A model generated the notes under the pieces. That model had not been told where the DNA came from. It saw only the letters and a list, made by a program, of their open reading frames with translations, and did no database searches. Made by a program: the position numbers and the translations under genes. Shown here piece by piece: positions 8,910-42,664 of a stretch of 46,259 nucleotides of DNA. The stretch comes from Oscillospiraceae bacterium (GTDB lineage Bacteria > Bacillota > Clostridia > Oscillospirales > CAG-272): positions 1-46,259 of the forward strand of contig SVSV01000002.1 of the NCBI GenBank assembly GCA_015064125.1, given 5' to 3'. Numbering within the stretch: the stretch's first letter is position 1; each line of letters starts with the position of its first letter.

Positions 8910-9914
8910 TTAATAACCCTTGGGGTTTTGCGACTGCCAGTTCCAGGAGTCGCGCACCATATCGTCAAGCCCATATGCGGCAACCCAACCAAGCTTTTCC
9001 TTTGCCTTAGCAGGGTCGGCATAGCAGGCCGCGATATCGCCCGGGCGACGGGGACCGATCTTATAGGGCACGGGCACGCCGTTGACACGCTCAAAGGCCT
9101 TTACCATATCCAACACACTGTAGCCCATGCCCGTGCCAAGGTTGAATACCTCAGCGCCCTTATCCTCATAGCCAAGCGCCGCCACGTGACCGCGGGCAAG
9201 ATCGACCACGTGAATAAAGTCGCGCACGCCCGTGCCATCGGGAGTGGGATAATCATTGCCAAACACCGAAAGCTCCTTCAGCTTGCCGACAGCCACCTGC
9301 GTGATATAGGGCATGAGATTGTTTGGAATACCGTTGGGATTTTCACCGATCATACCGCTCTTATGCGCGCCAACGGGATTGAAATAACGCAGCAGGATCA
9401 CCTGCATATCGGGGTCGGATACACAGTAGTCACGCAAAATGACCTCGATCATATACTTAGTCCAACCGTAAGGGTTAGAGCAATTGCCCGTGGGGCTATT
9501 TTCAGTAATGGGGCACCTTTCGGGCGTGCCGTAGACCGTCGCGGAGGAGCTGAAGATCAGCTTTTTAACACCCGCCCTTTTCATGACACGCAACAGGGTA
9601 AGAGTAGAATTGATATTGTTATCGTAATATTCAAGGGGCTTTCTTACCGACTCTCCCACAGCCTTATAGCCTGCAAAATGCACCACGGCATCGATCTTGT
9701 GCTCAGCAAAGATCGCGTCCATCGCGGCCTCATCTGCCACGTCAGCCTCGTAAAGCGGCACCTTTTTGCCAATGATTTTTTCAACGCGCGCCACCGCCTC
9801 GGGGCAGCTGTTGTAAAAGTTATCTACGACCACGACCTCATGGCCTGCAGCATCCATTTCAATGATCGTGTGCGTGCCGATATAGCCCGCACCGCCTGTC
9901 AGCAAAACCTTCAT
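8910..9914 (-). CDS. galE: UDP-glucose 4-epimerase
   Basis: MKVLLTGGAGYIGTH NAD-binding start plus YGWTK (YxxxK) and FNPVGAH motifs. ATG at 9914 follows AGGAGG. Confidence 0.93.
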   Translation of the reverse strand: MKVLLTGGAGYIGTHTIIEMDAAGHEVVVVDNFYNSCPEAVARVEKIIGKKVPLYEADVADEAAMDAIFAEHKIDAVVHFAGYKAVGESVRKPLEYYDNNINSTLTLLRVMKRAGVKKLIFSSSATVYGTPERCPITENSPTGNCSNPYGWTKYMIEVILRDYCVSDPDMQVILLRYFNPVGAHKSGMIGENPNGIPNNLMPYITQVAVGKLKELSVFGNDYPTPDGTGVRDFIHVVDLARGHVAALGYEDKGAEVFNLGTGMGYSVLDMVKAFERVNGVPVPYKIGPRRPGDIAACYADPAKAKEKLGWVAAYGLDDMVRDSWNWQSQNPKGY

Positions 9915-10051
9915 ATAAGCCTCCTGATACAAATCATTATTACATAAACAGTATAACTTTTTTCGCGCGGCATGTCAATATTTTCGGACAAAACAATTTA
10001 GATATGCGACATACGGGATGCAAAATCACCGCATTTTTTTACAAGTGCCTC

Positions 10052-10080
10052 TTGACAAGAGGCATTGTGAGTGCTATAAT
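10052..10080 (+). promoter_or_regulatory. sigma-A promoter of the trpB leader
   Basis: TTGACA (10052-10057), 17-nt spacer, TGcTATAAT (-10 at 10075-10080). Confidence 0.7.
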
Positions 10081-10099
10081 GTGCTCATAACATAAAAAC

Positions 10100-10370
10100 C
10101 GTTGATGCGGAGATAAAGGCAGTTATGCCCCCACAGAGAGCCTGCGATGCTGAGAGTCAGGTGGGAAACAAGCTGTTAAATGGACCGCTGAGGGCGTGGA
10201 TGAACTGCCTGTGGCAAAGTATTCTGCGACGTGGGGCAAGCGTGATTGCCAAGGATATGTCAGTATCCGACAAAGGGCATAGATTTTCTATGAATGCAAG
10301 GTGGCACCGCGGATAAGCTATTATTCGTCCTTGACAGATGGTTTTTATTCTGTCGGGGCGTTTTCTTTTT
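10100..10370 (+). promoter_or_regulatory. T-box riboswitch, tryptophan specifier (UGG)
   Basis: AGAGAG (10135-10140) and GCTGAGAG stem I motifs. Specifier-loop AAATGGA has UGG at 10181-10183. Conserved T-box GGTGGCACCGCG lies at 10300-10311. Terminator CGTCCTTGACAG..CTGTCGGGGCG is followed by TTTTCTTTTT (10326-10370). Confidence 0.85.
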
Positions 10371-10406
10371 AAAGGAACGCCCACACCGCACAAAAAGGAG
10401 AAAAAA

Positions 10407-11627
10407 ATGAAGCTGAACAACGTAGACTTTGAAACCTATTTTGCAAACTATCCCGACGATAAGGGCTTTTTCGGCAAATACGGCGGCGTTTTTGTGGAGG
10501 AAAAGCTGAAGCGCGCCATGGCCGAGATCACCGAGGCCTATTTTTCGATCTGTCAATCGCGCAAATTTATTGCCGAGCTGCGCCGTATCCGCAAAGAATT
10601 TCAGGGGCGCCCCACGCCCGTAACACACCTTGAGCGCCTTTCCGACGCCATGGGCGGCAAGGTGCAGCTTTATGCCAAGCGCGAGGACCTCAACCACTCG
10701 GGCGCTCACAAGCTGAACCACTGCATGGGTGAGGCACTGCTTGCCAAGTTCATGGGCAAGAAAAAGCTGATTGCCGAAACAGGTGCAGGTCAGCACGGCG
10801 TGGCACTGGCCACCGCCGCTGCCTACTTTGGCCTGAAATGCGACATTTATATGGGCGCGGTCGACATCAAAAAGCAGGCCCCGAACGTAGCACGCATGAA
10901 GATCCTCGGTGCGAACGTTATTGAGGTCACCCACGGTCTGCAGACCTTAAAGGAAGCGGTCGATGCCGCATTTGACGCCTACAGCCGCGAATACGAGGAT
11001 GCCATTTACTGCATCGGCTCGGTGCTGGGGCCCCATCCCTTCCCCATGATGGTGCGTGATTTCCAGAGCGTTGTCGGCATCGAGGCAAGAGAACAGTTTA
11101 TTGATATGACGGGACACCTCCCTTCCGCGATCGTTGCTTGTGTGGGCGGCGGCTCTAACGCTGCGGGCCTGTTTGCAGGGTTCCTTAACGACCCCGTGGA
11201 TATTTACGGTGTTGAGCCCTTAGGGCGCGGTGAAAAGCTGGGCGATCACGCCGCCAGCCTCAAGTACGGCACCGAGGGTATCATGCACGGCTTCAACAGC
11301 ATTATGCTCAAGGATGAAAACGGCGCCCCCGCCCCCGTTTACTCGGTGGCAAGCGGCCTTGACTATCCCTCCAGCGGCCCCGAACACGCGTTCCTGCAGG
11401 AGATCGGGCGCGTCAAGTACGACGTGATCAACGATGAGGAAACGATCGATGCATTCTACCGTCTTGCACGCCTTGAGGGCATCATTCCTGCCATTGAAAG
11501 CGCGCATGCCGTGGCCTTTGGTATGAAGCTGGCACAGCAGATGGACCACGGGTCGGTACTGATCAACCTTTCGGGGCGTGGCGACAAGGATATGGACTAC
11601 ATCATTGAAAACTACGGCATCAGATAA
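10407..11627 (+). CDS. trpB: tryptophan synthase beta chain (stand-alone)
   Basis: [13 protein letters not shown], the PLP-lysine motif HSGAHKLNH and GAGQHG. ORF trimmed to the ATG at 10407, which follows AAGGAG. No trpA is adjacent. Confidence 0.9.
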
Positions 11628-11883: not shown

Positions 11884-11969
11884 GGCGCAGGCCAAAACAC
11901 ACCCAGCACTTATTTGAACGGCAAAGCCACCTCGTTTTATCGGTTATACATAGGCAAGGTGGTTTTTTA
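11884..11969 (+). repeat. about 87-bp direct repeat, copy B
   Basis: Same unit as 11642-11729, with a few substitutions and a 2-nt indel in the hairpin loop. Confidence 0.85.
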
Positions 11970-11992
11970 AAAAAGCACACCCAACATTTATT

Positions 11993-12036
11993 AAAAGAGC
12001 CGCACTGTCATCAATGACAGTGCGGCTCTTGCTTTT
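11993..12036. terminator. bidirectional terminator at the 3' end of the ABC-transporter operon
   Basis: AGAGCCGCACTGTCAT-CAA-TGACAGTGCGGCTCT, flanked by A/T runs. The preceding AAAGCACACCCAACATTTATT resembles the start of the 87-bp repeat. Confidence 0.8.
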
Positions 12037-12051
12037 GCATACACAGTACAC

Positions 12052-12858
12052 TTAAAGCACCTTGGCAAGAAATGCCCGCAGGCGCTCATTTTTGGGATGA
12101 TTAAACAGCTCGTCTGGCGTGCCCTCCTCGGCGATCACGCCGCCATCCATGAAAATGATACGGTCGGCCACCTCACGGGCAAAGCCCATTTCATGCGTAA
12201 CGATCGCCATCGTCATGCCCTCATTGGCAAGCTCCTTCATCAGATCCAACACCTCGCCGACCATCTCGGGGTCAAGGGCGGAGGTCGGCTCATCAAAAAG
12301 CATCACCTTGGGGTTCATCGCCAGTGCGCGCACAATAGCAATACGCTGCTTTTGGCCTCCTGAAAGCGTAGAAGGATAGGCTTCTGCCTTTTCGGCAAGG
12401 CCAATGCGCGCCAAAAGCGTCATGGCCTTTTCCTGCTCCTCAGCCAAGATCTGTGCCTTGGTTTCAGTGGGCTTTTCAGCCTTGCCGAGCAGCGAGCGCC
12501 ACTTCTCGCGGCGCAGTCGCTGACAACGCAGCATCACGGGCGCCAGCATAATATTCTGAAGCACGGTCTTGTTGTTGAAAAGATTGAACTGCTGAAAGAC
12601 CATACCCATCTTCTGACGATGAATATTGATATCAACACGCGGATCGGCGATATTTTCATTATCGAAAATGATCTCGCCGCCCGTCGGGTCCTCAAGGCAA
12701 TTCAGGCACCGCAAAAGCGTACTCTTACCCGACCCCGAGGCACCGATGATAACCACCTTTTCGCCTGCCTTGATATCAATGGAAACCGATTTTAATACCT
12801 CAAGCTCACCAAAGCTCTTGGAGAGGTCCTTGACGCTGATCAGCACGTTATTTTCCAT
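12052..12858 (-). CDS. polar amino acid ABC transporter ATP-binding protein
   Basis: Walker [10 protein letters not shown], signature LSGGQKQR and Walker [12 protein letters not shown]. The ATG at 12858 follows GGGAGGTG and overlaps the permease stop by 11 nt. Confidence 0.9.
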
Positions 12859-26005: not shown

Positions 26006-27445
26006 ATGAACTACCGCATGCTTATATATCTGCTTGGCATTATCACGATAATAGAAGCGGCACTGATGGCCTTCCCGGCACTTGTGGCGCTTATCTACGG
26101 TGAGAGTGCAGCACCCTTTCTGATCACAATGGCCATTATGCTGCTGCTTTCTCTGCCCATTGTGATCTTTAAGCCCCAAAACAAACGCATTTATGCCAAG
26201 GAAGGCTTCATCACAGCGGCCGCCTCTTGGCTGCTGCTTTCCTGCTTCGGTGCGCTGCCCTTTGTGCTTAGCGGCGCCATTCCCAATTATATCGACGCTC
26301 TTTTTGAAACCGTTTCAGGCTTTACCACCACGGGTGCCTCTATTTTAACCGAGATAGAAAGCCTGCCGCGCGGCATTTTATTCTGGCGCAGCTTCACCCA
26401 CTGGGTGGGTGGTATGGGTGTGCTTGTATTTATGCTTGCCATTCTCCCTGCCGATAACGGGCGCGCTATGCACCTGCTCCGTGCCGAGGTGCCCGGCCCC
26501 ACCAAGGATAAGATCGTGCCGAAAATGCGCCAAACGGCCTTGATCCTATACGGCATTTACATGGCATTGACCATAGCGCTCTTCATCGCCCTGCTTTGCA
26601 CCAAAATGCCCCTTTACGATTCACTTGTCAACGCCTTTGCCACGGCCGGTACAGGTGGCTTTTCGGTTAAAAACGCCTCCATCGGCGCCTATCAAAACCC
26701 TGCTGCGGAATGGGTGATCGCCTCGTTTATGCTCCTGTTCGGCGTGAACTTCAATATATACTTTTTATTGCTCATCAAACGCTTCGGGGACGTTTTGAAA
26801 AACGAGGAGCTTCGCGTATATCTTGTACTGTGTGCAATAGCTACTGCGCTGGTCACCTTCAATACCCTTTCGTATTTCCCCACCGTTGGCGACACCGTGC
26901 GCTCCGCCTTTTTCCAGGTAACTACCCTGCTCTCGACCGCAGGCTTTGCCACCGCCAACTATGATCTCTGGCCCTCGTTTTCAAAAACGATACTGCTGCT
27001 CGTGATGGTGATAGGCAGCTGTGCAGGCTCTACCGCAGGTGGCTTAAAGATCTCGCGCGTCATTATTGCTGTCAAGAATATGTTCCGCAGCGTGAAAAAA
27101 ACCATTCGTCCGCGCTCGGTAAACGTGGTGCGCATGGACGGCGAACCCGTGCCCGATGCGACTCTGCACGCAACGGCCAGCTATATTTCTATCTATTTTG
27201 CATTGATCGTGGTGGTGACACTTTTGATCTCGCTTGACGGCTTCAGTATCGAAACCAATCTTGCCGCGACGTTGGCCACCATCAACAATGTCGGCCCCGG
27301 CCTTGGCGCCGTTGGTCCTGCGGGCAATTACGCCGCCTTTTCTCCGCTTTCCAAGATCGTGCTGACGCTCACAATGCTGATCGGCCGACTTGAAATTATG
27401 CCCATGCTGATTTTGTTCTCCCCTGCCACGTGGCGCAAGGGATAA
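26006..27445 (+). CDS. trkH: Trk-type potassium transporter membrane subunit TrkH
   Basis: Multi-TM protein with TTTGAS, TAGTGGF, STAGFAT and NVGPGLG selectivity-filter-like repeats. ORF trimmed to the ATG at 26006. Confidence 0.9.
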   Translation: MNYRMLIYLLGIITIIEAALMAFPALVALIYGESAAPFLITMAIMLLLSLPIVIFKPQNKRIYAKEGFITAAASWLLLSCFGALPFVLSGAIPNYIDALFETVSGFTTTGASILTEIESLPRGILFWRSFTHWVGGMGVLVFMLAILPADNGRAMHLLRAEVPGPTKDKIVPKMRQTALILYGIYMALTIALFIALLCTKMPLYDSLVNAFATAGTGGFSVKNASIGAYQNPAAEWVIASFMLLFGVNFNIYFLLLIKRFGDVLKNEELRVYLVLCAIATALVTFNTLSYFPTVGDTVRSAFFQVTTLLSTAGFATANYDLWPSFSKTILLLVMVIGSCAGSTAGGLKISRVIIAVKNMFRSVKKTIRPRSVNVVRMDGEPVPDATLHATASYISIYFALIVVVTLLISLDGFSIETNLAATLATINNVGPGLGAVGPAGNYAAFSPLSKIVLTLTMLIGRLEIMPMLILFSPATWRKG

Positions 27446-27446
27446 T

Positions 27447-27848
27447 ACAAAAGCCCGACACAAGGTCGGGCTACAGCGCTCCCACAAACACAAATGTGTT
27501 TGGTACCACGCTCCCCTCGCCGGTGCGACCACACATCAGGTCCACGCCCTAAAAGCCTGCCACCGGCAGCCTTTTGTGCCCTGAACGGTGGCACACGGGC
27601 TTCCGAATCCACGTTTAATGCTCCACAAACACAAAAGCCCGACACAAGGTCGGGCTACGGCGCTCCCACAAACACAAATGTATTTGGTACCACGCTCCCC
27701 TCGCCGGTGTGACCACACATCAGGTCCACGCCCTAAAAGCCTGCCACCGGCAGCCTTTTGTGCCCTGAACGGTGGCACACGGGCTTCCGAATCCACGTTT
27801 AATGCTCCACAAACACAAAAGCCCGACACAAGGTCGGGCTTTTGTGTT
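27447..27848 (+). repeat. 184-bp tandem repeat, 2 full units plus a 34-bp partial third
   Basis: ACAAAAGCCCGACA recurs at 27447, 27631 and 27815, giving a 184-bp period. The two full units differ at 3 positions. Each unit has several hairpins (GCCCGAC-ACAAG-GTCGGGC, GCCTGCC-ACC-GGCAGC). Confidence 0.9.
27817..27848. terminator. shared bidirectional terminator (trkH on +, tRNA operon on -)
   Basis: AAAAGCCCGAC-ACAAG-GTCGGGCTTTTGTGTTT; only the last repeat copy carries the T-run. Confidence 0.7.
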
Positions 27849-29234: not shown

Positions 29235-29268
29235 GGCGCTACGGCATTTGCCGTAGCGCCCTTTTTTA
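29235..29268. terminator. bidirectional terminator between gpsA and the phage-like module
   Basis: GGCGCTACGGC-ATTT-GCCGTAGCGCC followed by CTTTTTT. Confidence 0.8.
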
Positions 29269-29529
29269 TTTTACCGTGCGTACCCACGCACCGTTTATAA
29301 GCGAATATGTGACTGTTGCCACGTCAACCTCTCCTTCGCCCTCAAGCAGCTCGGCCTCGGATCCCTCAGGAGCAAGCTCCTCTTTTATAGGATAATACCC
29401 GTGTGCAGCAGCAAAGACCGCATCGCGCGCAATGCGCCCTGCAAAATTTGATACCACACGTCCGTCAACCGTAACAGCGCCACACGGCGGTAAGATCGGT
29501 ATGCCGTTTTCAATACGATAACGTTTCAT
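29266..29529 (-). CDS. hypothetical small protein (third gene of the phage-like module)
   Basis: 87 aa. Its start overlaps the upstream stop (TGATG at 29527-29531). Acidic central stretch. No family recognised. Confidence 0.6.
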   Translation of the reverse strand: MKRYRIENGIPILPPCGAVTVDGRVVSNFAGRIARDAVFAAAHGYYPIKEELAPEGSEAELLEGEGEVDVATVTYSLINGAWVRTVK

Positions 29530-30971
29530 CAGGAGCCCTCCTCCAGCACCAAGCGTCCGCCAAAGTTCTCCATGGTGTCTGATGCCATAATTTCATAAGT
29601 GGCATGATTGATGCCGTTTGTGCTCAATATATCTCCGCCAACGCACAACCGCCCCACGCCCTTATGAGTGATCGGCATATGCCGCGTATAGGTCGCCCAA
29701 TAATATTCAGGATGCTTGGTTTGAAGTTCAGACGGCACCAGCAAATGCGGCTTACCGTAAACGCCAAAGCTGATGACGTAGCCATAGCTCTGAGTACGTG
29801 ACATATAGGGCTTACCGTAATCGTACTCAACATAATACTCATTGAGTGTGCCGTCATATTTTGACATATCCTCCAAATAGCACACGCTCATGCCCGTAGG
29901 ATGATCGTTGTTGAACAGCACGTCACAGATCATTGAGGTGGCGTTCCCCCACGCGTTTTCCTTGCCACGCCAAACAAACGGACACTCGCGCATATTGCCC
30001 ACAGTCCCCGAGCTTGCTTTGGTCACGCGAGAAAGTGCCTCACCCGACGGCTGCCTTACATACACAAGCTTGCAGCTTTCCTTATCCGAAAAAAACGCCT
30101 CAGGGTCATCAAGATCAATCAAAATAGGGTACCCCAACTCAGTTTCCTCACCAACGCCCAAAATTTTGACATTGTATTTGCCGCTCTCCTTACCGCTATA
30201 ATTGATAGCGGCAAGAGCGCCTACGCCGATCTTATCGGGCTCGGTAGTATAGAAGCCCGCGGCAAGTGTGCCGCTTGACACCTTTTGCCACGTGGTATTC
30301 AGAGTACACCTTATTACGCCACACATCACGCTTTGCAGGCTTCTTGTAGCAAATTCAACCAGCAAAAGCAGATAATCTGAAAACCAATCGGCCATCCTTT
30401 CGGTATGGGCAGCAGGATCATACAGGCGCGCTATTGGCATGATATCAACAAAAGTGCCTGTGTAGGGCAGCAGCCCCGCACGCGAATGCGGCTTGCCATC
30501 CTCTCCTATGCCCATTTCAAAGCAGGGGCGATATTCATACGTGGTGCCGTTTTTAAACATTGGCGCAAGCGTATAGCCACGCAGTGGCTTATCACTGACC
30601 GACACATAGGAGGGCGCTTGCGCACCGCTCATATCGATGCGGTACCAAAACGGCTTACAGCGATAGATGACCTCGCGGTTCTCTTCTGTAGGGCTTAGCG
30701 TAAAGCCCTCCTCACCGCGTGCTACAAAATCACGCCAGGTGCGTGTTTGCGCATCCCACGTAGCATTGAAAATAGGGCGCTGAAAAATACTGATATAGTC
30801 AAAATCATTGCGCACGGCCTGATCGCCCGCAGCGACGTTTGCCACCATGCCAAGCGCGAGATCGCAGCGCTCTCCCTGCGGCGAGATCCCGTCCTGCGGG
30901 AAACGTACCGACCAGGCATGCGGCACGCGCTCAGGCAGGAAAAATTTGCGCTGTCTTACGTGCTCGGTCAT
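29529..30971 (-). CDS. hypothetical 480-aa protein, putative phage tail-fibre/receptor-binding-like by context only
   Basis: Long clean ORF whose ATG overlaps the upstream stop (ATGA at 30968-30971). No motif recognised. Its position after a BppU_N-like gene suggests a distal tail component. Confidence 0.65.
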   Translation of the reverse strand: MTEHVRQRKFFLPERVPHAWSVRFPQDGISPQGERCDLALGMVANVAAGDQAVRNDFDYISIFQRPIFNATWDAQTRTWRDFVARGEEGFTLSPTEENREVIYRCKPFWYRIDMSGAQAPSYVSVSDKPLRGYTLAPMFKNGTTYEYRPCFEMGIGEDGKPHSRAGLLPYTGTFVDIMPIARLYDPAAHTERMADWFSDYLLLLVEFATRSLQSVMCGVIRCTLNTTWQKVSSGTLAAGFYTTEPDKIGVGALAAINYSGKESGKYNVKILGVGEETELGYPILIDLDDPEAFFSDKESCKLVYVRQPSGEALSRVTKASSGTVGNMRECPFVWRGKENAWGNATSMICDVLFNNDHPTGMSVCYLEDMSKYDGTLNEYYVEYDYGKPYMSRTQSYGYVISFGVYGKPHLLVPSELQTKHPEYYWATYTRHMPITHKGVGRLCVGGDILSTNGINHATYEIMASDTMENFGGRLVLEEGS

Positions 30972-31768
30972 TGTGTCTCACCTACCGATTTGTATTGCAC
31001 CGTACCGATCTGCCACTTGCCCGCTGCACGCGAATAGGTACACACGATATCAAAATCACCGTGCACGATGTCGGGGATCTGACCGTCAACAAACAGCACG
31101 TCAGCAGCATTTCCCCAATCGATCGACACTGCCACCATATCGCGCTTGGGTGCATGACAGTAGATCAGGATCCAGCTATCATCACCTACGTCATCGGGTC
31201 GAGGCAACACCATGGTAATGTTCTTCCAGCCGCCCTCCTCGCCGTAGATCTCAGAGGAAAGATCAAGAGCATACTTACGGTTGGATAACGGATGCAATTC
31301 ATACCCGTTGGCCGACAGAATGGGCTCAAGCGTGAAAACGCGCTCCTCGCTCAGCAGCCGCGCGGTGATGCTTCCCTCATCGTCGCTATCGCCCGGCAAG
31401 ATCTCATCGGCCGCCACAGACGGTGCTACGTCCACCTCAAAGGGCGGTGTTGTCAGCTTGCCGCCGTCAGCATCAACGACCGTAACGTCGCATTGCAGGA
31501 TCCCGACGTTACGCAGCATCCAGCTGTTAAAGGGCAGTGTCAGCGTGCCGTCGCAATTCACCTCACCCGCAAAGGCACGCAGCTCGCCTGCGGCATTTCT
31601 GGCATTTAAAAGCACCACCGCATTTTCCTCTACGCGAAGCGGCTCGCCAAAGGCAAAAAGCGCAAGACGCACGAAGCGCGTAGCATTATCACCCTGTCTT
31701 GCCACAACGGTTTGCAGCGTGTCACGCTCAGCTACGTCAAGCATCATTTTACACATACATTGTGTCAT
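30968..31768 (-). CDS. phage baseplate upper protein (BppU_N) domain protein
   Basis: ORF trimmed to the ATG at 31768, which follows GGAGG. The N-terminal 110 aa or so (..TVVARQGDNATRFVRLALF..GEPL..VVLLNARNAAGE..DGTLTLPF..ML..G.LQCDVTVVD.DGGKLTTPPFEVDV) fit the BppU_N Ig-like pattern. Confidence 0.7.
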   Translation of the reverse strand: MTQCMCKMMLDVAERDTLQTVVARQGDNATRFVRLALFAFGEPLRVEENAVVLLNARNAAGELRAFAGEVNCDGTLTLPFNSWMLRNVGILQCDVTVVDADGGKLTTPPFEVDVAPSVAADEILPGDSDDEGSITARLLSEERVFTLEPILSANGYELHPLSNRKYALDLSSEIYGEEGGWKNITMVLPRPDDVGDDSWILIYCHAPKRDMVAVSIDWGNAADVLFVDGQIPDIVHGDFDIVCTYSRAAGKWQIGTVQYKSVGETQ

Positions 31769-31844
31769 AAAAAACCTCCTGTTTTTGGTTTGCGGGGCCG
31801 CCCTCCCGGTTTGTCGCAATGACAAGAGCTGCCCGGCAGAGCCT

Positions 31845-31853
31845 ATTATAACA
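31845..31853 (-). promoter_or_regulatory. candidate extended -10 promoter of the phage-like module
   Basis: Minus strand TGTTATAAT. There is no good -35 at 17 nt (TTGACG sits at 21 nt). Confidence 0.35.
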
Positions 31854-31886
31854 CAGGAGGTAGTGATTTGTCGTCAACTGCTGCGC

Positions 31887-31932
31887 AAAAAAATTTGGCC
31901 TGCCCAAGACACCTTGGACAGGCCGTTTTTTT
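31887..31932. terminator. bidirectional terminator after queT
   Basis: AAAAAAATTTGGCCTGCCCAAG-ACAC-CTTGGACAGGCCGTTTTTTT. Confidence 0.8.
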
Positions 31933-32447: not shown

Positions 32448-32454
32448 AGCTTTT

Positions 32455-32498
32455 CTCCTTAGTTTTTATTAAGGTGAGGATGGTTGCGAACTCACCGT
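32455..32498 (-). promoter_or_regulatory. preQ1-I riboswitch (translational, overlaps the SD)
   Basis: Minus strand GGTGAG-TTCGCAACCATC-CTCACC-TTAATAAAAACTAAGGAG. This is a P1 hairpin plus an A-rich tail ending in the queT SD, matching the class I consensus layout. Confidence 0.8.
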
Positions 32499-32501
32499 AT
32501 T

Positions 32502-42031: not shown

Positions 42032-42664
42032 CTAAATCTGATCCTCTTTTACGGCGATCAGATCGGCTGCGTAGGGCAAGGACAGGATCCAATCGCAAAG
42101 CGTATGCCACTCGGCAAGCTTATGCGTGCGCCGTGCGTAATAGATGTTAATGAGATTTTCGTAATTTAAGGTCACAGTACGCATCTGATTGAACGAAGAG
42201 GGTAAAAGCTGGATCATGTTGTGCCAAGCCTGCTTATCCGACTTATCTGCCACAAACCTCACGCGCTCACCCTCAAGATAGTTGATCAGTGCGTCAAGTG
42301 CCGCAAGACCGCCTTCATCCAGCCTGTCGCAGGAAAAATCCTCACGCGAAAAGGCCTTGACGTGAATTTTATGCATCGTGGAGGTGGAATTTGCCACCGT
42401 GCCGACCTTATATGTGTCAAATTCCTTCCACCAGTAAAGCGGAGCTGTAATATCCACCGACACAAAGATCTGACGCAGAAATTTACGGTGATCGGAGCCT
42501 GCACGTGCAAGGCGCTTGGCAAGATCAAGATCGTTTTGGCCAAACACAAATGCACCGTTTTCATCAAAGCTGCTGTCCATACGCGCCCAGCTGTTCATCG
42601 GATTGCGCGCGCCACGAATGGCATTATCAAAATTCATTACAGAGGTGCGTTCGATCAAAATCAT
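42032..42664 (-). CDS. ThyX-fold protein lacking the canonical RHRxxxxxxxS motif
   Basis: 210 aa. It is collinear by eye with FAD-dependent thymidylate synthase (AIRGAR.., SDHRKFLRQIFVSVDITAPLYWWKEF.., C-terminal LNYENLINIYYARR). However, the motif position reads FDTYKVGTVANSTS. ATGA overlap with the dxs stop. Confidence 0.55.
   Translation of the reverse strand: MILIERTSVMNFDNAIRGARNPMNSWARMDSSFDENGAFVFGQNDLDLAKRLARAGSDHRKFLRQIFVSVDITAPLYWWKEFDTYKVGTVANSTSTMHKIHVKAFSREDFSCDRLDEGGLAALDALINYLEGERVRFVADKSDKQAWHNMIQLLPSSFNQMRTVTLNYENLINIYYARRTHKLAEWHTLCDWILSLPYAADLIAVKEDQI

Follow-up and report, generated by a model that had tools for sequence, protein, structure and literature searches.

The DNA examined here is a stretch of 46,259 nucleotides (nt) from an Oscillospiraceae bacterium (contig SVSV01000002.1), referred to below as the window, and the subject is a module of three genes on its minus strand, named p1, p2 and p3. 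An initial annotation had described this module as an orphan, translationally coupled unit of phage descent, headed by a gene for a BppU_N-like protein and surrounded by housekeeping genes, and this core reading is supported here. From sequence comparison and structure prediction, the module is read as an operon that belongs to the host and derives from the distal tail of a siphophage of Clostridia. Compared loci carry L-numbers and compared proteins P-numbers, and the search for phage-particle genes reached over the window and over locus flanks of 10 kb or less. The three genes are as follows.

30968 to 31768, minus strand: p1, 266 amino acids (aa), codons 31768 to 30971, stop 30970 to 30968.
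29529 to 30971, minus strand: p2, 480 aa.
29266 to 29529, minus strand: p3, 87 aa.

The three open reading frames (ORFs), with the lengths given in the annotation, are present at these positions, and both stop/start overlaps that had been described were seen in the sequence: p1 and p2 are chained by ATGA at 30971 to 30968, and p2 and p3 by TGATG at 29531 to 29527. The ATG of p1 lies seven bases after AGGAGG. Direct searches with the three proteins returned nothing usable from Pfam and nothing from PDB sequences, and tblastn against GenBank phages gave a single weak match (MT836575.1). The first protein was divided into two domains.

31415 to 31768, minus strand: p1 N-domain, BppU_N type (aa 1 to 118).
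30983 to 31369, minus strand: p1 C-domain (aa 134 to 262), beta-rich, following a flexible or disordered linker.

The assignment of p1 to BppU_N stands by fold and through the orthologues but not as a direct family match. The window protein has no Pfam match, even at E ≤ 1, and matches only an uncharacterised PHROG. Among its orthologues, 36 of 51 match PF10651 (BppU_N) at E ≤ 0.01, the best at 1.1e-8. The AlphaFold model of p1 has a predicted local distance difference test (pLDDT) score of 83, and in Foldseek its N-domain matches the N-domain of BppU from phage TP901-1 (3uh8; E 3e-6, template-modelling (TM) score 0.74), 4v96 (E 5e-7) and the baseplate adaptors of NF5 (9m8o; E 1.7e-7) and 80alpha (6v8i; E 6.6e-6). 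A hidden Markov model (HMM) of the N-domain was also shown to match the N-termini of phage fusion proteins, at 1e-13 in L032/L039 and 1e-4 in L003. No Dit/Tal tail or baseplate module was found around p1 in the window or in the syntenic loci.

The C-domain of p1 carries two near-invariant motifs, WILIYCHAP and GDFDIICTYS. When its profile was compared with 1.84 billion representative proteins, only 41 matches were returned, the close ones being orthologues or p1-like proteins with added C-terminal modules. In the remote matches examined (P0137, P0148, P0151 and P0153), the domain forms the extreme C-terminal tip. The remote carriers include two collagen-repeat proteins and one tail-fibre-like protein in a phage genome, whose gene lies just upstream of those for a 261-aa protein, an 84-aa protein and an endolysin. 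By its profile, the p1 C-domain is placed as a relative of the C-terminal tip domain of phage tail fibres. With an adaptor fold at one end and a tip-position domain at the other, p1 is thus read as an attachment domain joined to a fibre-tip domain. A search of IMG/VR with p1-specific motifs found no relatives, and the C-domain HMM has no match in the phage loci compared. Within the C-domain, Cys204, Asp240 and Cys243 never vary and His205 hardly does; the strands that hold them are about 35 to 40 residues apart in sequence, and these residues could form a metal site or a catalytic dyad.

Three parts of p2 are distinguished, the last of them by comparison with phage proteins that are targets of diversity-generating retroelements (DGRs).

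Amino acids 1 to 217, minus strand: conserved N-half of p2.
30057 to 30320, minus strand: beta-rich insert of p2 (aa 218 to 305), missing in variants of about 400 aa.
29544 to 29666, minus strand: segment of p2 equivalent to the phage DGR variable region (about aa 436 to 476).

The second and third proteins had been left without a family, which is still the case for p3 (weak PHROG similarity only) and no longer for p2. The AlphaFold model of p2, built with 61 homologues, has a pLDDT of 93.5 and a predicted TM score (pTM) of 0.91, and its sole significant PDB match is TaqVP (5vf4; E 1.4e-6, probability 1.00). TaqVP is the variable protein of a Thermus prophage DGR, a single domain of the formylglycine-generating enzyme (FGE)-type C-type-lectin fold with inserts (PMC6328139). 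Against predicted viral structures the model matched 38 proteins, most of them annotated as phage tail fibre (best E 3.7e-24, TM 0.76), with FGE-like and TvpA-like entries among them. p2 is placed as a head of the FGE-type C-type-lectin fold, homologous over its full length to the DGR-targeted receptor-binding proteins of siphophages.

In the phage relatives, a single protein of 596 to 733 aa combines a BppU_N adaptor, the part by which accessory fibres attach to the baseplate, a neck and an FGE-type C-type-lectin head. In L032/L039 at least, a neighbouring DGR rewrites the C-terminal variable region of this head. P0063 and P0065 (696 to 733 aa) are fusions of BppU_N (by Pfam), a repeat-rich apparent coiled coil (by eye) and a p2-like region; P0064 (691 aa) aligns in the same way, with its Pfam match not on record. 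The gene for P0063 lies in a siphophage tail module with tape measure, Dit and Tal, and a reverse transcriptase (RT) gene is found just downstream. L032/L039, L038 and L042 likewise have an RT behind the p2-like gene. In L032, a prophage-like tail module of Clostridiales bacterium GWF2_38_85, the complete arrangement of a DGR was found, with the variable copy at 9247 to 9359, the template copy at 9441 to 9553 and the RT at 9678 to 10886. Its target is a 649-aa protein of BppU_N plus C-type-lectin fold, homologous to p1 over the N-domain and to p2. The C-terminal 113 nt of the target gene differ from the copy 194 nt downstream only at adenines of the downstream copy, with one exception. The p2 homologue of L032 is a bona fide DGR target. 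Since BppU_N and the p2-like region are fused in phages and separate here, the chromosomal p1 and p2 are regarded as two halves of one phage gene. Judged by these alignments, BppU_N has been retained in p1, where a C-domain of the fibre-tip type stands instead of the neck, and p2 is the head alone.

A further observation concerns L003, a phage locus with a BppU_N plus p2-like fusion and an RT. Its template-like repeat, within 11955 to 12272, contains no adenines, and the differences between this repeat and the variable-region copy are not adenine-specific. It looks as though the DGR template itself had been 'mutagenised' and inactivated.

On the chromosome, tblastn with the phage RT found no RT in the window or in any chromosomal locus, and no template-like repeat for p2 was found in the window. 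The operon is nucleotide-identical in two other samples and differs in a third by five scattered single-nucleotide polymorphisms (SNPs), only one of which lies in the variable-region-equivalent segment; hypervariation of this segment between close genomes was not seen in the three samples. Between species, the p2 tail keeps VGG, NH.T[YF] and GGRL[IV]LE and differs at the positions that are DGR-variable in phages. Change between species is spread across the whole p2 head and is not confined to the variable-region segment. Such change is read as ordinary substitution, and p2 as no longer a DGR target.

The surroundings of the module are those of a chromosome. Pfam agrees with the annotated neighbours gpsA, queT and folC and identifies an energy-coupling factor (ECF) S-component beside them, and about 40 further window ORFs are housekeeping genes, spoIIR among them. 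Genes for phage structure, lysis and integration had been reported missing from the 46 kb, and none was matched: Pfam gave no such family among the window ORFs, and those ORFs without a Pfam match have no phage structural PHROG match either. The order ecfS-folC-queT-p1-p2-p3-gpsA is the same in at least ten GTDB species representatives. The carriers are metagenome-assembled genomes (MAGs) of uncultured Clostridia of the Oscillospiraceae type; where the title of a species-representative MAG names the source, most are from ruminant or other gut samples. A sister group has a shorter form after folC, made of p1 and a p2 of about 400 aa without the 218 to 305 insert, usually without p3 or queT, and in one lineage the three genes have other, likewise non-phage, neighbours. 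The length of p1 is 265 to 267 aa in nearly all full-length orthologues of the three-gene type and 260 to 263 aa in the short-form lineage.

At the syntenic loci, identity to the window is 72 to 86% for folC, 71 to 86% for gpsA, 51 to 88% for p1, 41 to 77% for p2 and 43 to 79% for p3. The ratio of non-synonymous to synonymous substitution rates (dN/dS), calculated pairwise by the NG86 method, is 0.075 to 0.15 for p1, 0.10 to 0.29 for the whole of p2 (0.07 to 0.23 in the N-half and 0.2 to 0.6 in the insert), 0.09 to 0.30 for p3 and 0.03 to 0.17 for the flanking genes. The dS of p1 is similar to that of the flanking genes, and that of p2 is higher. The protein distance of p1 tracks that of folC (Spearman 0.91), and the distances of p2 and folC are correlated within the long type (Spearman 0.78). 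These comparisons show vertical inheritance under purifying selection, with p1 as constrained as its housekeeping neighbours and the p2 head evolving fastest.

The composition of the module had been called host-like by eye. This was confirmed for p1 and p2, whose GC content, GC content at third codon positions (GC3) and synonymous codon usage lie within the window's range; p3 has a codon score about 1.9 standard deviations from the window mean and a GC3 of 0.44, well below the window mean of 0.61. The synteny, the intact ORFs, the dN/dS values, the co-divergence with folC and the codon usage therefore describe a domesticated module and not a decaying remnant. Among the possibilities raised by the initial annotation, a domesticated receptor-binding module is strongly supported, with a conserved promoter (below) adding to these lines of evidence. 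A cargo for a particle encoded elsewhere was a second possibility, and it is the mechanism preferred below. The third, a well-preserved prophage remnant, is rejected by the refuting condition that the annotation itself had set: no relative shows a prophage at this locus, no frameshifts were seen and selection is not relaxed.

The expression signals of the module were then located as listed here.

31897 to 31924, minus strand: intrinsic terminator, bidirectional, with a 12-bp stem (8 GC pairs) and a T-run; it ends the queT transcript and forms the upstream module boundary.
31867 to 31878, minus strand: invariant 12-mer GTTGACGACAAA, overlapping the -35 region and occurring once in the window.
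31845 to 31853, minus strand: extended -10 element TGTTATAAT, scoring 10 of 12 matches with the TG present.
31791 to 31838, minus strand: 5' leader stem-loop with outer stem, inner hairpin and internal loop, assigned with moderate confidence.
29235 to 29260, unstranded: GC-rich hairpin common to the module and the convergent gpsA, a canonical terminator for gpsA only.

Bidirectional terminators had been proposed on both sides. Upstream, the hairpin at 31924 to 31897 has T-runs on both strands and is therefore bidirectional. The downstream hairpin at 29235 to 29260 has a T-run on the plus strand (the gpsA side) only; on the module strand TGATGCC follows and a U-tract is missing, and this half of the proposal did not hold. 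The promoter element attributed to the module was recovered, since the score of TGTTATAAT is that of an extended -10 promoter. Among -35 hexamers, ACGACA has the best spacing, 18 nt in the window.

The spacers between queT and p1 are otherwise unalignable, yet they carry GTTRACGACAAA and then, 12 to 13 nt on, the -10 consensus of the orthologues, TGYTAYAAT. GTTRACGACAAA occurs exactly once in each of 25 matching loci, always upstream of a p1-type gene. It also precedes p1-like genes in unrelated chromosomal contexts, exactly in L044 and as the one-base variant GTTAACGACATA in L043. The 12-mer was seen upstream of all p1-type genes for which upstream DNA is available, save L023, where the near-variant GTTGACGACACC (a one-to-two-base change) stands in its place, and L059, a leucine-rich-repeat (LRR)-head operon with no exact match. 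It was not found in the phage relatives L003, L032 and L038 to L042. An extra match in L033 falls inside a CorC gene and was set aside as chance. By eye, the 12-mer has no convincing match to the Spo0A-box, LexA or sporulation-sigma consensus. Conservation here goes well beyond the needs of sigma-A and suggests a specific DNA-binding regulator, and the 12-mer is probably the site of such a dedicated regulator.

The leader spans the first ~50 nt of the transcript in three-gene loci. Its outer stem varies with compensating changes, and the internal loop ACCGGGRG (31803 to 31810) is invariant. The architecture is the minimum-free-energy fold in all seven leaders of one set and is kept in the three-gene loci except L008, at -15 to -23.5 kcal/mol. 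Relative to shuffled sequences, z-scores are modest (-0.9 to -3.5), and no Rfam family was matched. The RNAalifold consensus from a MAFFT alignment is weak because the stems are out of register. The conserved stem-loop is a probable, not a proven, element. Its ACCGGGRG motif is Shine-Dalgarno-like and lies about 25 nt upstream of the real Shine-Dalgarno sequence; it could serve as a STAB-SD-type stabiliser or as a protein-binding site.

The search with the p1 C-domain also led to sister operons with other heads. In two of them a p1-like base, P0130 (398 aa) or P0135 (375 aa), precedes an LRR_5 protein and a protein of 58 to 68 aa. One of these two operons adjoins dapF, and the other has different housekeeping genes around it. 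These operons and further orphan relatives are located as follows.

L044, 8001 to 10402, and L059, 522 to 2846: LRR_5-head operons in unrelated housekeeping contexts.
L043, 205 to 2865: P0131 (886 aa), in which a long repeat fibre is joined to a p1-like base; a GH35 gene adjoins it, and the housekeeping context is again unrelated.
L030, 7305 to 9779: orphan 680-aa fused p2-like gene with a Phage_tail_APC chaperone gene, without the 12-mer promoter.

L030 is flanked by HAD hydrolase, TilS-like and methyltransferase genes on one side and by CorC and AI-2E transporter genes on the other. Another relative, of 715 aa, was seen beside a CorC gene in L033, followed by two small ORFs that are holin-like by eye. 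Across these loci the recurring plan is a base, a swappable binding head and a small helper, which is the modular logic of phage tail fibres. This plan suggests, by position, that p3 is an assembly helper. p3 was found only in chromosomal modules; it matches phrog_21264 weakly in 5 of 20 orthologues, and its HMM has no match in the phage loci compared. In L030 the gene at the position of p3 encodes the Phage_tail_APC chaperone, which has no detectable similarity to p3. By analogy of position, p3 may be an assembly chaperone or helper.

How would such an operon act? The most likely mode of action, put forward tentatively, is that the module provides a fibre, in trans, for a phage-like particle whose genes lie elsewhere. 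p1 and p2, their amounts coupled by translation, would form a complex in which the C-domain of p1 holds p2, much as BppU holds BppL in TP901-1 (PDB 4V96). The surface of p2 that corresponds to the variable region of the phage proteins would bind a species-specific ligand, and p3 would help in folding or assembly. The complex would be assembled in the cytoplasm onto a particle encoded elsewhere, such as a tailocin, an agent like a gene transfer agent (GTA) or a resident prophage, and would serve as the target-recognition fibre of that particle. Through the 12-mer that they have in common, fibre operons at scattered sites would come under one regulator. In Rhodobacter capsulatus, the tail fibres and head spikes of the gene transfer agent are encoded far from the main structural cluster and are co-regulated with it. 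Signal peptides, transmembrane segments, lipoboxes and C-terminal sorting signals were looked for in p1, p2 and p3 and none was found. LPYTG at aa 168 of p2 was considered as a sortase signal and rejected, as it lies away from the C-terminus and lacks a hydrophobic tail behind it. Export signals are likewise missing from phage structural proteins, and cytoplasmic assembly onto a particle is therefore probable. The combination of no export route, a conserved adaptor and a fast-evolving head makes a fibre acting in trans the most economical mechanism.

Several points weigh against a fibre acting in trans. Phage-like particle genes were found neither in the 46-kb window nor in any locus flank. 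Promoter-motif scans of public collections gave no further regulon members: the scan of viral contigs returned only one unrelated AT-rich sequence family, and that of metagenomes one orthologue and two chance-level matches. The near-consensus extended -10 suggests constitutive vegetative expression, which would be odd for a particle component. The interaction of p1 with p2 and the binding of a ligand are both inferred. The p1 C-domain might itself serve as a second head for binding and not as a dock for p2, and, with the neck region of the phage protein gone, the complex may have ceased to form a trimer or to suit a baseplate.

One alternative, an unlikely one, is a complex that works by itself as an adhesin or lectin on the surface of the cell or the spore, delivered without Sec by mother-cell assembly or lysis. 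p1 would then anchor to a host structure such as the spore coat, exosporium, cell wall or S-layer, and the ligand of p2 would be a glycan or protein of the environment or the host. The absence of export signals argues against a simple surface adhesin; spore-surface proteins, however, need no signal peptide, and the organism is a spore former (spoIIR is in the window). A conserved p1 with a fast p2 head fits a fixed anchor and a changing ligand, the remote relatives of the p1 C-domain cap collagen-like proteins in a manner that recalls the exosporium fibres of the BclA type, and the LRR_5 heads of the sister operons are typical of surface-binding proteins. Against this, the promoter, with its extended -10, belongs to the vegetative sigma-A class and by eye has no sigma-E or sigma-K features. 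Wall-binding, S-layer homology (SLH) and sortase signals were not found by Pfam or the signal scan, and BppU_N is known solely as a phage-particle adaptor.

The same cytoplasmic location and the same constitutive-looking promoter are what an anti-phage decoy would need. As a decoy, p1 would use BppU_N to attach to the Dit ring while an infecting siphophage is being assembled, giving progeny wrong or useless heads or poisoning baseplate assembly, and the close phage homologues are the exact proteins to compete with. Long-term retention in gut bacteria under heavy phage pressure would fit as well. This explanation is nevertheless distinctly unlikely. PADLOC gave no match at E ≤ 1 for p1, p2 or p3, and by its gene content the window places the module outside any defence island. 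An arms-race interface would be expected to vary, whereas the p1 N-domain is as conserved as housekeeping genes (dN/dS 0.075 to 0.15), and a poison has no need of an intact, selected and diversifying p2 head or of alternative LRR heads.

A cytoplasmic role unrelated to particles or surfaces, with the FGE-type fold turned into an enzyme or into a protein for binding or regulation inside the cell, is improbable. FGE-type C-type-lectin folds do include true enzymes, and enzymatic activity has been discussed for DGR variable proteins (PMC6328139). The missing export signals and the possible metal or active site at C204, H205, D240 and C243 of p1 would agree with such a role. However, the most conserved region of p2 is its virion-proximal half and not the pocket equivalent to the variable region; heads that can be swapped with LRR modules fit binding and not catalysis; and no Pfam enzyme family was matched.

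Two further explanations are very improbable. A decaying or recently stranded prophage remnant without host function would account for three genes of phage descent or phage-like character with tRNA genes about 1.2 kb away, but not for length-conserved, intact ORFs at the same locus in at least ten species, for low dN/dS, a p1 dS like that of the flanking genes, co-divergence with folC, host-like codons and a conserved promoter, or for a window with no integrase or other phage gene, no repeat of any module part and no att-like repeat. DGRs with remote targets are known and p2 is homologous to bona fide variable proteins, so continued diversification of p2 in trans by a retroelement elsewhere in the genome was considered; it is set against the lack of an RT or template-like repeat in the 46 kb, the near-identity of p2 among samples (identical in two, with the third separated by the five scattered SNPs) and change between species over the whole head.

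Beyond the single operon, it is conceivable, though doubtful, that uncultured gut Oscillospirales run a multi-locus phage-derived system of their own, in which scattered fibre operons answer to one regulator through GTTRACGACAAA. Each operon would consist of a base with BppU_N and tip domain, a swappable head of the C-type-lectin or LRR kind and a small helper. These operons would arm a GTA-like agent or tailocin encoded elsewhere, or would act alone as a new sort of binding device made in the cytoplasm or as an anti-phage decoy.

The module can be compared with several known systems. With the baseplate of TP901-1 it shares the BppU_N fold of the p1 N-domain (with the family signature in orthologues), an adaptor gene followed by a binding-protein gene, an adaptor C-domain available to hold the next protein, and cytoplasmic structural proteins without export signals. 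Unlike TP901-1, it lies in no prophage and has no gene for Dit, Tal or the tape measure nearby; the sequence of the p1 C-domain is not related to that of BppU, the domain belonging to a fibre-tip family instead; the p2 head has a C-type-lectin fold and is not of the BppL type; and the module is chromosomal, vertically inherited and served by a host promoter. The DGR variable proteins, such as Mtd of Bordetella phage, TaqVP (5VF4) and Treponema TvpA, resemble p2 in their FGE-type C-type-lectin fold, TaqVP being the best PDB match. The phage homologues of p2 adjoin DGR RTs, the adenine-specific pair of L032 lies at the homologous C-terminus, and the species-variable positions of the p2 tail coincide with the phage variable positions. 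In contrast to these proteins, p2 has no RT, template repeat or hypervariation and changes by ordinary substitution under purifying selection; it is also much larger than the minimal fold, with an extra beta insert and a separate adaptor partner.

The gene transfer agent of Rhodobacter capsulatus offers a likeness of organisation: phage-derived attachment genes standing alone among housekeeping genes, vertically inherited, host-regulated and presumably acting in trans. The taxa and the proteins are unrelated, however, and the present system is known from its fibre genes alone, with the shared regulator suggested by the 12-mer. The receptor-binding proteins of tailocins (R- and F-type pyocins, diffocins) are likewise domesticated, with fast-evolving, swappable heads and an adjacent small chaperone. 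Tailocin fibres, in contrast, are encoded inside a tail cluster by lysis genes, whereas the module has no such cluster in the 46 kb and its promoter looks constitutive. No description of this operon or of BppU-linked DGR targets was found in the literature searched. The pieces are known, namely a BppU_N adaptor, a DGR variable protein of the FGE-type C-type-lectin fold and a fibre-tip domain. What is distinctive is their arrangement: split, DGR-less and clade-fixed at a housekeeping locus, with its own promoter (and a leader in the three-gene form) and with sister operons that carry other heads.

Phage receptor-binding genes are normally among the fastest-turning-over genes. Phage tail-tip genes that are fixed at a housekeeping locus, co-diverge with the host across a clade, have a conserved promoter and carry an interchangeable head represent a rare kind of domestication. 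Such genes suggest that abundant, uncultured gut Clostridia put the proteins of a phage tail tip to a use of their own that has gone unrecognised. The module also provides a natural experiment on DGR targets, in which, after loss of the retroelement, the binding scaffold has been kept and evolves by ordinary mutation. Should the fibre act in trans, the 12-mer together with p1 would be a handle for finding GTA-like or tailocin systems. A decoy would represent a new defence principle, and a surface lectin a candidate host- or glycan-binding factor of gut commensals. The multi-locus system, if it exists, would add to the Clostridia a domesticated phage system that had not been recognised before and that makes use of a 'frozen' former DGR target.

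Three observations elsewhere in the window are added. Directly upstream of queT, on the minus strand at 32453 to 32500, lies a match to the preQ1-I riboswitch (27.2 bits, below the gathering score of 39; E 0.019), which is probably a real but divergent preQ1 aptamer controlling the queT transporter gene. Between trkH and a tRNA-Thr/tRNA-Tyr pair, positions 27444 to 27840 hold two tandem copies of a 184-nt unit that are 98% identical. Both units close with the same terminator-like hairpin, AAAAGCCCGAC...GTCGGGCTTTTGT, of which a third copy abuts tRNA-Tyr. The repeats matched no Rfam family and may be tandem small-RNA genes. Finally, an ORF of 210 aa on the minus strand at 42032 to 42664, directly downstream of dxs, has no Pfam match but matches phrog_6721 (unknown function) at E 5.6e-70, a very strong match; the gene is probably a conserved one of bacteria, found in phages as well.

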